Below, in pieces: positions 6,913 to 12,152 of a DNA stretch of 64,000 nt; the stretch's first letter is position 1; the number at the start of each line of letters is the position of its first letter. Source of the DNA: Neophaeotheca triangularis. Lineage: Eukaryota. The stretch covers positions 124,001-188,000 of the forward strand of contig BAAIJX010000014.1 of assembly GCA_054600435.1 (NCBI GenBank), in the 5' to 3' direction. A program made the translations under genes and the position numbers. The notes below the pieces were generated by a model. It saw only the letters and a program-made list of their open reading frames with translations. It did no database searches and had not been told where the DNA came from.

Positions 6913-9165
6913 ATGCGAGAAGAGCGGCACGATAGCAACAAGTCTCCCGCCCCCGCCACCAATGTGACGCAAGGACAGACTGCTTCAACCGACACCGCTG
7001 CCGGAGGCTTCACTGCCGTCAATGGAGAAGCTTCCAGACATGCGTCTTTCCGCCCAGAGAAGGTGTCGGAAAAGATTGCTTCGACGGTCGAGGATGCTTC
7101 ACGACCGCCGACGTGGACTTCATATGCAGACACCCGTCATGACATGGACGACTATTCCGCTTTTCGTGTTGGACGCTACCGTGAGACTTCAATCGATGGT
7201 GGGAAGCGAAAACGTACCGATCGCGAAGAGGGTGCCGATGATTCTCGCGCCTACACTCAATTGTCCAACGATGATGAAAGACCGACGAAACAGCGTCGCG
7301 CTGTTCCAGTGGACCCGGCAATAGAACACTATCCTTCTGATAGGGTGCTTCCGGATATGCAAAGAGGTTCGGCCGCGGCGCCGTCCACCGCTGGCGGCTT
7401 CTCCCGGTAAGTTAACAAGGTGATGCTTGCAAAATTTACTTGGCTAACAGCGTGCAAAAGTGAAATGACACCGGCTCGTAGAAAGAATGCTTCACAACCG
7501 CCGCCTAGACCGCACCCCGAGACTGAGGCCCGACTGGCAGAATCCCTGCAAAGAGAGCTGGGAACAGTGGCCTCCCCACGTCCAGTCGAACATAACAGTC
7601 CAACACATCAGTCGACGCCTTATGATGCTCGCCAGCCGCAGCATTACAGTCCCGACCAGTTCAATTCAGGTGAAGCTAGCGAGGGGAAGAAGGGTAAGAG
7701 AGACTATCGACCGCGCACGAAAACCGGATGTCATACATGCCGGCGTCGCAAGAAGAAGTGCGATGAAGGCCAGCCGTATTGCAACAATTGCTTCAGGGGC
7801 AATTTCCAGTGCGAGGGCTATGGTCCAAAGCCGCCAGGGGGTAGCAAGTCCAACGCGAACCGCAACAATGTGCCACTGCAAGCTAAGCATCCCTATGAGC
7901 CGTCCCATGGACCTATCGGCCACTACCCGATGCCGGAACACCCACAGCCACATCTTCCGCCTCCACCCCCTGGCACTTCATACTCCCATTGGGGTCGTGT
8001 AGAGCAGGGCCCTCCTCCTCGGTACAGCGAGCCGCACCCTGAAGACTCCCGACATGGAGGTCATCGCGAAAGCTACCCGCCAAGACCTGCATGGCCCGTG
8101 GCACACGAGCACCCAGCGTATGCGCCAGAGCAGTACATTCCGCCAGACTACAACAACACCATTCCCCCACTTCAGTCGATTGTCCGCGACGCGGTCCCTG
8201 ACGGCTGGGCTCACCCAACGGCAGCAATGACGCCCTACCGCGGTCCCCCGGGCCCAGAGCGCATGCTCAGCTCCCACGGTAGCGTCTCCTCAGATCGAAC
8301 CTCACACCATCAACGCGCCGCACAGCTGGCTCTCTCCTTCCCCAGCAGCGGCCAAATGTCAGAAAAGGACAAAATGCTCCTCGGCAAGCCCTACCTGCAC
8401 TACCTCGACACAATTCTCTGCGCCGACCGCGAAGCCTGCAAAAGCGCACTCGAACGCTACAACGACGCCGCGCGCCCCTCATCAGGCGTCAGTACCGAAG
8501 AGCGCGCGCGCCTCTCCCGCGCCATCGTGGACCCCTCGACACGCTTCCAAGCGCGCAACCCAGGCGCAAACCCTCTCAGCCTGAGCACCCACAACGGCCA
8601 CACGCCCTCAAACCGCCACCCACCTGCCCCTACCCCGCCACAAACCGACCCCATCGGCCGCATCGGCCACCGCACCCTCGTCGAAACCCCTTTTAATTGC
8701 GACTACGGCTACAACCTCCAAATCGGCGACGACAGCGTCATCGGCGCCAACTGCCACCTGCAAGACGCGGCGCCCATCATCATCGGCAACCGGTGCGTCA
8801 TCGGCCCCAACGTCAAATTCTACGCCATGACGACCTCCATCGCCTCCTCGGCGCGTCGCGGCAGCCAGGGCGCTTTCACCGCCGGCGCCATCGTCATCGA
8901 AGACGACGTCGTCATTGGCGGCGATGCCATTGTGCTTGCTTACCGCACCGTGGGCAAGGGTGCTTTTGTCGGTGCCGGGTGTGTTGTGAGCAAGGACGTC
9001 AAGCCCAATACCGTTGTCGTCGGGAATCCGATGCAGCTTGTCAGGGGCATTGGGGGCGAGGATATCGAGCGCCATCGCGAGCCGGTGCAGAGTGAGAATG
9101 AGGCCATGCTTGCTTGGATGCAGGGGCGGAGGGGGGTATATGGGAGGGAAGGTGAGGGGAGGTGA
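6913..9165 (+). CDS. Zn(II)2Cys6 transcription factor fused to a C-terminal maltose/galactoside O-acetyltransferase-like (Mac + hexapeptide beta-helix) domain; 2 exons, intron 7407-7460; start uncertain (first ATG 6913, open frame from 6718)
   Basis: RTKTGCHTCRRRKKKCDEGQPYCNNCFRGNFQCEGY (Cys residues 7729-7812); SEKDKMLLGKPY, ETPFNCDYGYNLQIG, IGPNV, VGAGCVVSKDV..VVGNP. Intron GTAAGT...GCTAAC...AAG joins the 6763 and 7420 ORFs in frame. Confidence 0.9.
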
Positions 9166-10150
9166 GGTGGAGCTTGCCTCGAGTCGGGGAATTTGGACAG
9201 TTATATGAGGGTGATTATGTGAGAGCGGGGGTTTGGAGGTCTTGTTGTTTGGGAGCGTCGACTGTTGCCGCATCGGCGCTTGGCTCGTGGCTCTCTCTAC
9301 CCCGCCGTGCCTTGTGCGAGTTGCGAAACTTTGGCCACGGCGCCGGGGCTGTGGCTTTTTAACGACCATCTCTTTTGACGAACGAACGCACGAACGAACA
9401 AACGAACGAACGAACGACGCCCGACTCCTTTTATGCCTTTTTTTTCTTTTGCTTTTTGGTAGTCTTTCACGACACGCATATGGGAAAACCACGACGAATA
9501 GCGCCCCGACAAGGACCATGGAACGAAATACATAGACCATGACACGTGGTTTTGGGGGGGGAAAGGAAAATAAAAATCCCAAAGGGGTTTTGGGGGGAAA
9601 GACGAGACGAAAGACTCGGACTCGTGTGTATGTATGTATGTAATTTTGGAATTTTTTAGATGGGCGATCCCTTGCCGTGCCGCTGGCCCTCTTTTTTGCT
9701 GCCTCCCTTTCGGGCAAGTTTAGGGAAAACGGTATTGACTTGATCGCGAGAGGGGGGTGGGGGGGATGAGCTGAAAGGGATTCTTGGCTTGATTCGCTCA
9801 AGGAGAGAGGAATTTGGATGGGTGAATGGGTTGTATGTTTGTGTGAATGTATGTAGATAGTTTGGGATCTTTCTCTCGGCCAGATGGGATGGATTAATCT
9901 TTTTGTGTACGTACGACTTTAGGTTTCTTATCGTTTTCGTGGACTTTTTGAGACATGAGCCGGTTTTCTTGGGGTAATCATTCATGTTAGCGATTCTTGT
10001 TGTTTTTTTTTTTTTTCTAAATCCCTCGTGCCCGTCCCAACGCCGACGCTGTGCATGCACTTTTCACGTTTCTTTCTTATTTTCCTTTTCCCATTGCCCC
10101 CGAGCCCCGCTGCTGACCACCCTTGCCTCCTCCTTGTTCAGGCCATCCCA

Positions 10151-11512
10151 TTAGCGCTGCCCGCCCTTACTCAAATCCCCCTGCGTCTCGGCCACGGGCA
10201 CCGTCGCCTTCAACGGCGGCAAACAGCCGCGCAAAGTCTGGCGGCTCGCCTGCGCCGCCACGGCATCCATGACCACCAACGCCGCCATGGCCTCGACAAT
10301 CGGCACGGCGCGCGGAATGACGCACGGATCGTGCCGGCCCTTGGCCTCGAGGACGCCGCTGCTCTCGTCGTACGTGGCCGTCTGCTGCGCTTGGCCGATG
10401 GTCGCCGGGGGTTTGAAACCGACGGTGAAGTAGATGGGGGCGCCGTTGGTGATGCCGCCTTGGATGCCGCCGGAGTTGTTGGTTTTGGTCGTGAGGCGCG
10501 GGCGGCGTTCGCCTGCGGGTCGGGTTTCGGAGGGGTTTTGGTTTTGGTCCGACGAGGCGACTACGAAAGCGTCGTTGTGGATCGATCCGGCCATTTCACA
10601 GCCCCCCTTGCCGCTGCCGATGTCGAAGGATTTGGTCGCTGGGATGCTCAGCATGGCGTGGCCCAGCGCGGCTTCGAGTTTGTCGAAACACGGCTCGCCT
10701 AGCCCGCTTGGGCAGTTGCGGATCACGCACGTGACGGTCCCGCCGATGCTGTCGTGGTTGTCGCGGAATTGGCCGATGAGCTTCTCCATGCGATCCGTGG
10801 CGTCGGTGTCGGGGCAACGGACGGGCAGGAAGGAATCCACCTTGTCGCGGGTGATGGTGTCGATGAGCTCGAGGAACTTGGGGTTGAGCGAGTCCGACTT
10901 ATTAACGGGAGCGGCCTCCTGCTGTTGCAAGTACTGCTTGAAAGCCTCCTCGGCCGAGCCGCCCGCTTCCTGGATCATCGAGTGCAAGTCCGCAGCCTTG
11001 GCCCTCTCCGGCGGGTACAAGTGCTCGCTGCCGACCGACGACGTGAAAGCGACTATCTCCACCCCGTACGCCTCGCGCAAGAACTTCTCAGCAATCGCGC
11101 CCGCCGCGACCCTCCCAATCGTCTCCCGCGCACTACTCCTACCTCCACCACTACTAGCCTTGACACCATACTTCTCCAAATACGTCCAATCCGCATGACT
11201 GGGCCGGGGGAACTTATCCATGGTACTGTTGCCATAGTCCTTGGGGCGCTGGTTCTCGTTGAGCACGAGCATGCCAATGGGCGTCCCCAGCGTGACCCCG
11301 AATTCCGTCCCCGACTGGATGTGCACTTTATCCTTCTCGTCGCGCGGCGTGCTGATGGCGCTCTGTCCCGGGCGCCGCCGTGTCATTTGCGGTTGGATGT
11401 CTTTCTCCTCCAATAGCATGCCCGGGGGCACGCCGTCGACAATGCATCCCACACTCGCGCAGTGCGATTCGCCGTACGTGGTGACGCGGAAATGGCGGCC
11501 AAAGGTCGACAT
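10151..11512 (-). CDS. ARO2: Chorismate synthase
   Basis: MSTFG..FRVTTYGESH, RPSHADWTY, GGRSSARETIGRVAAG, NNSGGIQGGITNG, GRHDPCVIPRAVPIVEAM; single exon. Confidence 0.98.
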   Translation of the reverse strand: MSTFGRHFRVTTYGESHCASVGCIVDGVPPGMLLEEKDIQPQMTRRRPGQSAISTPRDEKDKVHIQSGTEFGVTLGTPIGMLVLNENQRPKDYGNSTMDKFPRPSHADWTYLEKYGVKASSGGGRSSARETIGRVAAGAIAEKFLREAYGVEIVAFTSSVGSEHLYPPERAKAADLHSMIQEAGGSAEEAFKQYLQQQEAAPVNKSDSLNPKFLELIDTITRDKVDSFLPVRCPDTDATDRMEKLIGQFRDNHDSIGGTVTCVIRNCPSGLGEPCFDKLEAALGHAMLSIPATKSFDIGSGKGGCEMAGSIHNDAFVVASSDQNQNPSETRPAGERRPRLTTKTNNSGGIQGGITNGAPIYFTVGFKPPATIGQAQQTATYDESSGVLEAKGRHDPCVIPRAVPIVEAMAALVVMDAVAAQASRQTLRGCLPPLKATVPVAETQGDLSKGGQR

Positions 11513-12152
11513 TTTGCTTCAAATTCTGCTTGCCGTTACTCTGTATTCGTGTCTGTGGACAAGAGTGTGAGATTGGATCGCTGCGGTTGTTCGATATATG
11601 GGGGACATGAATCATTCATTCGCGCCGATTCCCAAACTTTTTTTGGGCATCTCGAAAGCTTGGGGAGCTTCGACCAAGCTCCAGACTTCACTTTTAACAT
11701 GCTCGCTTCTTATTGGTTCGGACAGTGGCACGCTAGCGGGCGTATTCGAAGTCTGTACGACGTCAGATGCACGTTGTCTGTGCTGTGGTAGAAAAGTACA
11801 ATACAAATGTCGATTGTCTAAGAAGGCCTACTCAAGCACATTTCAACGCTGTAAACGATTTGATTGGCAGATATGCCAGAAGTACCAGTGAAAATCCCAA
11901 CTGCGACTCACAAAACCCAGCTCAGAGGTTCGCCGTCAACAGGTCTAGCATAACCTCACACTATAATTGGCAAATGTCCAAGACCTAGTGTTCCCCTACC
12001 TATCGCTAAGCTACAAACATTTACAAATGACAAGACGACAAAAGTACAAAACGCCTACCGGGTATCAGACCTTCCCGCAGCCTCCAACCCTCGTGATTGC
12101 AAACATGTTCGAACCCACCAAAATCTCCCTTCCCACTCCCATAGGCGCTAGA

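Follow-up and report, generated by a model that had tools for sequence, protein, structure and literature searches.

Why does a fungal transcription factor carry the fold of a sugar acetyltransferase? The question is raised by a gene at positions 6913-9165 (+) of a stretch of 64,000 nucleotides from Neophaeotheca triangularis (contig BAAIJX010000014.1 of GenBank assembly GCA_054600435.1, forward-strand positions 124,001 to 188,000; hereafter the window). Its product joins a Zn2Cys6 zinc cluster to a Mac cap and a left-handed β-helix of the Maa/LacA type, and an earlier note, made from the letters of the DNA, took it for a regulator that uses a dead enzyme as a sensor of acyl-coenzyme A (CoA) or sugar or as a trimerisation module. 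Our analysis identifies the gene as a member of the known FF7 family, in which the catalytic pair appears to have been given up almost throughout, and favours a role of the domain as a scaffold that may bind CoA.

An FF7 orthologue with a degenerate active site

The gene starts 5' of a frame of 584 codons without stop (7411-9165, +), in which Pfam recognises Zn_clus (expectation value, E, 1e-8), Mac (E 8e-7) and Hexapep (E 3e-10), all passing the cut-offs. Exon 1 (6913-7406), an intron (7407-7460) and exon 2 (7461-9165) yield a product of 732 residues that is identical to the NCBI gene model P0001 (Neophaeotheca triangularis). Exon 2 holds zinc cluster, linker, Mac cap, β-helix and stop in one frame, i.e. 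the single exon for both domains described by the earlier note is real. All features of the gene lie on the forward strand; the first Cys codon of the cluster starts at 7729, and the motifs KFYAMTT, DVVIGG, GAG and GNP start at 8815, 8905, 8971 and 9022, respectively.

As the best and the only two-domain match of Botrytis Bcin04g03490 in the genome, it is identified as the one FF7 orthologue of N. triangularis, a sequence-specific transcription factor. Bcin04g03490 (P0385) and the gene product are 36% identical over 493 columns across both domains (E 2e-78). As a query against the genome, Bcin04g03490 finds this gene at the top with both domains (E 9e-65), followed by the stand-alone Maa (E 1e-27), and this gene is the only one of 19 listed matches that covers both domains. 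In the tree it groups with Dothideomycete members. The central Zn2Cys6 cluster bears the family signature RTKTGCxTCRxRKKKCDE, departing from the family at Y247 and P249 in the upstream arm, and the C-terminal Mac and LbH_MAT_GAT parts are present in the same chain, as is characteristic of FF7. Mac_assoc (PF16628) has no Pfam match here, nor in Bcin04g03490 at E 1e-5; most listed members are without it, and it was not taken as a defining feature of the family. The ESM Atlas confirms an Ascomycota family and adds nothing further.

The fusion, similar cases of which the earlier note had expected in other ascomycetes, is thus FF7/Bcin04g03490, for which chromatin immunoprecipitation sequencing (ChIP-seq), knockouts and natural mutants have been published (PMC8079791, PMC4378982; these and the other papers are cited here for what their open-access text contains). 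Bcin04g03490, with a central GAL4-like cluster and a C-terminal LbH_MAT_GAT domain, is described as restricted to Pezizomycotina, with Neurospora FF-7 and Fusarium FGSG_10069 as orthologues (PMC8079791). Botrytis nulls are without sporulation, sclerotia, light response and pathogenicity, point mutations in either the zinc cluster or the β-helix domain give the same null phenotype, and the natural nulls Y633D and G722R sit in the β-helix domain; the authors speculate that Bcin04g03490 acetylates substrates such as chromatin proteins (PMC8079791). Neurospora crassa FF7 (NCU04001, female fertility-7) combines the same Gal4-type Zn2Cys6 cluster with a maltose acetyltransferase-like domain (PMC4378982), a comparison made by description, the Neurospora sequence not being among our matches. 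ChIP-seq of FF7 yielded 2756 sites with one motif, a single short word rather than a spaced repeat, and the factor binds the GATA factor SUB1 weakly; its domain is termed a 'putative O-acetyl transferase', the active site being left unexamined in that text (PMC4378982). In orthologues an AAGCG-type motif is bound, and fruiting or sporulation needs the factor (PMC8079791, PMC4378982).

Residues were mapped by pairwise alignments to solved Maa-type enzymes and by a multiple alignment with E. coli Maa and LacA. T623 (8833-8835) aligns with LacA His115/Maa His113 and V649 (8911-8913) with LacA Trp139/Maa Trp137, so that both replacements proposed by the earlier note hold; a third one, which it overlooked, is G593 (8743-8745) at the position of the oxyanion Asn (LacA Asn85, Maa Asn83). 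The spacing from P575 to T623, 48 residues, is that from P67 to H115 in LacA. In LacA His115 is the general base and Asn85 stabilises the tetrahedral intermediate, conversion dropping by about 90% in H115A and by more than 20% in N85A (PMC12775004), and the His/Trp pair is common to MAT/GAT enzymes, with the Trp of the adjacent subunit facing the His (PMC3046976). As a control, the stand-alone Maa of the same genome (L001) keeps Asn, His and Trp; it is encoded by a gene with introns at G000:C38:179323-182448 on the minus strand.

The likeness to the enzymes is otherwise close. Mac cap and β-helix are shared with E. coli Maa and LacA and the solved MAT/GAT structures (1ocx, 1kqa, 3nz2, 4isx; template modelling (TM) scores of 0.82-0.94 by target), and the fold residues and most CoA-side residues are kept, whereas Asn85, His115 and Trp139 have become Gly, Thr and Val, the domain is fused to a DNA-binding domain and some 40 low-confidence residues are added between cap and helix. 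The conserved C-terminal region seen by the earlier note is confirmed, with the turns G669-A670-G671 (G669 corresponding to Botrytis G722) and G686-N687-P688 as well as K676 and R693 retained in the CoA-side segment 8971-9045; by sequence comparison only, S675, Q690 and V649 are changed on this side. Altogether, it is probable that the domain has no physiological transferase activity in this protein.

Catalytic and CoA-side columns across the family

The active-site columns were then scored in a first set of 120 fused proteins (P0001-P0123 minus P0004, P0009 and P0010), in 90 stand-alone homologues, of which most of the named ones are bacterial, and in an enlarged set of 180 fused proteins, i.e. 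the 120 plus representatives at the 50% level that have the zinc motif. Thinning at 70% identity, with two basal rows removed, left 77 fused and 58 stand-alone proteins of similar diversity (mean identity 41% and 46%). The sources were the best 120 of 188, the best 120 of 222 and the best 150 of 726 strong matches; basal classes are thinly sampled, with no named Pezizomycete among the matches listed, and class labels were derived by general knowledge from the genus names of 95 named proteins. The counts leave out P0004 (fragment without cluster), P0009 (fragment without β-helix), P0010 (no cluster), P0159 (267 residues, stand-alone set), the N-terminal fragments P0357 and P0363, and 73 representatives without zinc motif, 71 of which cover the column, with His in six, four of these being repeats of the stand-alone type.

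The loss of His and Asn is family-wide, as judged from the alignments, since nearly all fused proteins are without these residues and nearly all stand-alone enzymes have them, and the loss of Trp is lineage-specific. His is found in 1/120 fused versus 88/90 stand-alone proteins, Asn in 0/120 versus 88/90 and Trp in 72/120 versus 90/90. Thinning does not alter the picture (fused: His 3/77, Asn 0/77, Trp 20/77; stand-alone: 56/58, 56/58, 58/58). In the enlarged set five of 180 members keep His (four gaps), two keep Asn, one keeps both and 95 keep Trp. Thus, the catalytically dead appearance reported by the earlier note extends, by these counts, to the whole family, and scoring of its His/Trp pair in the two-domain orthologues bears out the His part; Trp loss fails as a family signature, Botrytis being among those that keep it. 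All 37 named Sordariomycete members are without His and Asn and 36 of them have Trp, which the protein studied here lacks as well. Bcin04g03490 likewise has no catalytic pair (G646 at Asn85, L676 at His115), but differs in keeping Trp702 and in having a His directly after the catalytic column.

The His column is close to random in the fusions (entropy rank 153/183), being Leu, Ala, Tyr, Met, Thr or Val depending on the lineage, and Trp is replaced mostly by Phe in Dothideomycetes and by Tyr in Eurotiomycetes. Fold columns are fixed (G73 100%; D92, P67 and C70 99%). A search of all domain columns for a substitute His found none that is conserved (at most 38/120 in any column; H478 at LacA Asp17 in 20/120 only), and the newly conserved FF7 columns hold for the most part hydrophobic, Gly or cap residues, with no new conserved polar residue at the site.

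The two sides of the former pocket differ in their fate. The acceptor-side columns 83, 91, 115 and 127 rank 140-167 of 183 in variability, an aromatic residue at 83 is found in 86/90 enzymes versus 6/120 fusions, and L91, E127, His and Asn have decayed, the sugar side being degraded in all five classes. On the CoA side, the basic residues at LacA 166, 180 and 183, which presumably contact CoA phosphates (a citation was sought and none found), are kept in 87/104, 73/94 and 90/98 non-Eurotiomycete fusions (fractions in the enzymes: 0.96, 0.89, 0.79), whereas basic residues at other columns have drifted there, e.g. at 123 with 22/105. Together with the GAG and GNP turns these residues are kept in Dothideo-, Leotio-, Sordario- and, with the exception of 166, Lecanoromycetes. 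In Eurotiomycetes the basic residues are lost together (0/15, 0/14) and A160 is replaced by Pro in 13/14; the site is also degenerate in several divergent members.

One named protein appears to have an intact active site: P0290 from Orbilia brochopaga (KAK6359505.1) shares the FF7-type zinc cluster, the N-terminal motifs and the cap signature, but keeps F83, N85, H115, P116, E127 and W139. Metagenome contig L005, 97% identical to P0290, keeps Asn, His and Trp as well, and two relatives, P0276 and P0380, combine His and Trp with a Glu at the Asn position. In fast trees on a de novo alignment, P0290, P0276 and P0380 cluster together (0.94-0.99), and with all columns the Orbilia group branches as sister to all 31 remaining fusions (0.975). 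Orbiliomycetes branch early in the species tree, and a basal position of Orbilia rests on this and on the state of the outgroup rather than on the gene tree. Because stand-alone enzymes carry the same residues and the Orbiliomycetes are an early branch, the simplest history is probably that an active Maa-like enzyme was fused to a zinc-cluster factor and decayed afterwards, as suggested by this one named protein.

Whereas the fusion itself is not new, three findings appear to be: the loss of the catalytic pair throughout the family, the Orbilia member with its apparently intact site and the unequal fate of the CoA side among the classes. None of the three was found in PMC8079791, PMC4378982, PMC12027217 or PMC10219052 or by our searches, which covered mostly open-access text without figures (e.g. 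Fig. 8 of PMC8079791) or supplements.

A scaffold, a sensor or an enzyme

The model of the acetyltransferase domain has a mean predicted local distance difference test (pLDDT) score of 89.9, and the best Foldseek match is 3nz2 (TM 0.93 by target, root-mean-square deviation 1.8). In the full-length model the cluster (residues 255-282) is folded, a helix at residues 184-198 stands isolated and the domain is folded from about residue 462 on; no helix is predicted between residues 278 and 445, and thus no dimerising coiled coil. Because such a coiled coil is missing, the β-helix is the obvious oligomerisation unit. Canonical Gal4-type factors have the same CX2CX6CX6CX2CX6C cluster, but the protein studied here has neither their coiled coil nor Fungal_trans, and its cluster is central rather than N-terminal. 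Two further proposals of the earlier note gain from the models: a trimerisation module is plausible given the predicted intact Maa fold, and the predicted lack of a dimerising helix after the cluster is consistent with a departure from the usual dimeric Zn2Cys6 layout. As a trimer the protein would be unusual among Zn2Cys6 factors, and precedents exist for both parts of the idea, i.e. Gal3 as a pseudoenzyme regulator and eIF2B and dynactin with non-catalytic β-helices.

Based on these findings we consider it somewhat probable that the C-terminal domain is a pseudoenzyme that has lost acetyl transfer and assembles three chains as in Maa and LacA, taking the place of the Gal4-type coiled coil. 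The trimer would display three zinc clusters on flexible tethers, each of which may bind one short site with added avidity, and its cap helices and inter-subunit cleft may dock partner proteins. CoA may remain in the cleft in most classes and be dispensable in some, and the fusion may have arisen from a fungal Maa-like enzyme that, judging by the Orbilia member, probably still had activity in the beginning. In favour of such a scaffold, the fold is intact, yet His and Asn are lost in nearly the whole family, no helix follows the cluster in the model, the FF7 motif is a single short word, and the Botrytis nulls Y633D and G722R show that the domain is needed, at positions that are not catalytic: Y633 (Y580 here, 8704-8706; LacA Y72) lies within the conserved CDYG motif and G722 opens the GAG turn.

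Several observations weigh against the pseudoenzyme scaffold. Inactivity is deduced from sequence, and trimer and ligand are deduced as well. The β-helix N-acetyltransferase ApmA keeps resistance within two-fold after the exchange H135A (PMC7885111), and because ApmA works after this change, the loss of His does not prove inactivity. His without Asn is scattered in P0118, P0292 and P0303, nested among neighbours with Tyr, Leu or Pro, a His is in or beside the column in 3/15 metagenome loci, and 27/120 fusions, Botrytis included, have His at the +1 position. Moreover, the basal place of Orbilia is lost once 10 pocket columns are removed from the alignment, support in the Shimodaira-Hasegawa-like approximate likelihood ratio test (SH-aLRT) then being 16-76 on deep branches and the Maa exon of the own genome falling among the fusions. 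Finally, the basic CoA-side residues kept in four classes are easier to reconcile with a ligand role than with a scaffold alone.

The last point leads to a dead enzyme that serves mainly to bind acetyl-CoA or CoA, tuning the factor to the metabolic state, as in the acyl-CoA sensor of the earlier note, which we regard as possible but rather unlikely. Residues 166, 180 and 183 are retained almost at enzyme level outside Eurotiomycetes and lost jointly inside, and the G722R null affects a Gly whose counterpart in VioB is 3.3 Å from CoA (PMC9271549), an equivalence based on the motif and a 19-residue spacing to a conserved Pro rather than on superposition. Since 17/180 members naturally have a bulky or charged residue in the G722 column, an Arg there need not unfold the helix. 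However, with the site degenerate in Eurotiomycetes and several divergent members the function would not be universal, Trp139 is Val here and kept in just 20 of the 77 thinned members, the Gly/Pro turns are needed for the fold too, and the cleft could hold a peptide instead. Sensing of a sugar such as maltose or glucose in the former acceptor pocket, as the earlier note had envisaged, would suit the descent from sugar O-acetyltransferases and the partial retention of D71 (45/77), but few columns vary as much as those of the acceptor side, with the aromatic residue at 83, L91, E127, His and Asn all decayed; this argues against sugar sensing, which is very improbable. Thus, of the sensor interpretation as a whole the dead domain and a plausible trimer stand, and the novelty of the fusion, the Trp signature and sugar sensing do not.

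Could the domain still be an enzyme? A base-free N-acetyltransferase acting on lysines or other amines of chromatin or partner proteins, close to what the discussion of PMC8079791 proposes for Bcin04g03490, might draw on the ApmA precedent, on the CoA side kept in four classes and on the essential nature of the domain. Yet Asn is gone along with His with no new conserved polar residue in their place, the low conservation of columns 83, 91, 115 and 127 applies here as well, Eurotiomycetes have lost the CoA side, and Neurospora FF7 acts in transactivation, its deletion sparing light-induced nucleosome eviction (PMC4378982); we consider such an enzyme improbable. An ApmA-like amine-acceptor pocket would lie on the acceptor side, which is not conserved across the family at the level of sequence, although a pocket limited to a lineage is possible. 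That the domains belong to two genes, or that the fusion is mis-predicted, is hardly credible: the RNA contigs, which are short, leave the domains unbridged, but there is one open frame, 180 proteins have both parts, the β-helix starts in the same frame in 9/13 metagenome loci with a zinc-cluster frame (motif test), and Botrytis point mutations in either domain lead to the same null phenotype (PMC8079791).

Gene layout, surroundings and role of the family

Exon 1 (codons 1-165) starts with an in-frame ATG at 6913, as in P0001, and is predicted to be disordered (pLDDT about 40). It contains two family motifs, FTAVN and KRKR (7204-7215; the latter a likely nuclear localisation signal), and F33, N37 and R99-R101, which are conserved to at least 90% in alignment A3. 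The 54-nucleotide intron (GTAAGT ... GCTAAC ... AG) joins the exons in the frame of P0001 and lies outside the coverage of the RNA contigs; none of the eight short contigs from two RNA runs spans the intron or both domains, the contigs being too short for bridging. A scan for splice signals between 7800 and 8700 found one donor-like word and zero branch-site words. In exon 2, the isolated helix 184-198 (7516-7560; pLDDT 70-80 amid disorder) carries the motif LAESLQR of the A1 and A3 consensus and is a candidate partner-binding or activation element.

The FF7-type cluster (7729-7812; PF00172), with six Cys invariant in 110 aligned proteins, is preceded by a basic arm (7705-7713) that reads YRP versus the near-invariant F-S-N of the family (F247 and N249 at least 90%); judged by these residues, Y247 and P249, DNA specificity might differ from that of FF7. 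It is followed by a Pro-rich linker without coiled coil (7813-8361; 183 residues, 21% Pro; family median 192, n=129 measurable of 180), the Mac helical cap (8371-8526; PF12464), in which C491, A494 and E512 are family-specific conserved residues by column analysis, and the β-helix (residues 564-694, 8656-9048; Hexapep). The extra residues at the junction of cap and β-helix (8533-8655) are Pro/His-rich and have low pLDDT, and one RNA-run contig crosses them without gap.

A chorismate synthase gene (10151-11518, -) lies tail to tail with the FF7 orthologue; its 327 Pfam positions extend over 411 residues, indicating in-frame insertions or introns, and no chorismate synthase match was found in the flanks (up to 3 kilobases) of 13 related loci. 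A stop-free frame of 436 codons (8608-9918, -) overlaps the 3' end of the gene and its 3' untranslated region in antisense; it is of low complexity and probably a shadow frame. A (GAAC)n repeat (9375-9420) lies 3' of the stop codon. The Pfam-annotated neighbours between 2118 and 56555 are housekeeping genes, i.e. ribosomal L3, formyltransferase, Ufd2/U-box, AFG1 ATPase, polynucleotide kinase 3'-phosphatase, PP2C, Tcp11 and the aconitase family, with no gene cluster related to the FF7 orthologue among them. Autoregulation was considered and rejected: AAGCGC occurs five times in the 3.8 kilobases upstream versus about three expected at the rate of the window, which is not significant.

Among the matches outside the counts, P0010 (358 residues) combines a fungal-type Mac and β-helix with a long N-terminus but has no zinc cluster and neither the catalytic His nor the Trp; it may be a fragment or a derived paralogue. 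P0366, which has no zinc motif, has His in the column without Asn. P0271, P0305, P0345 and P0352 contain two or three Maa domains in tandem, the scored domain keeping its active-site residues, and are possibly single-chain trimers. Metagenome contigs L022, L024, L036, L050, L077, L078 and L082-L084 form two divergent FF7-like groups, possibly paralogues, one with an interrupted zinc-cluster frame and the other with a His near the catalytic column and no Asn.

Members of the FF7 family have major regulatory roles in sexual development and in the response to light, as well as in the pathogenicity of two crop fungi. The only mechanism proposed in the literature covered here is acetyl transfer by the C-terminal domain, and the column analysis argues against it. 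We may speculate, as a bolder and rather improbable idea, that the members are trimeric zinc-cluster factors that read acetyl-CoA or CoA via the dead acetyltransferase and so tie central metabolism to fruiting, sporulation and the light response in filamentous ascomycetes, with an intact enzyme-factor ancestor reflected in Orbilia and a scaffold only in Eurotiomycetes. Taken together, the family offers natural contrasts, i.e. Orbilia with an intact site, four classes with the CoA side only and Eurotiomycetes with neither.

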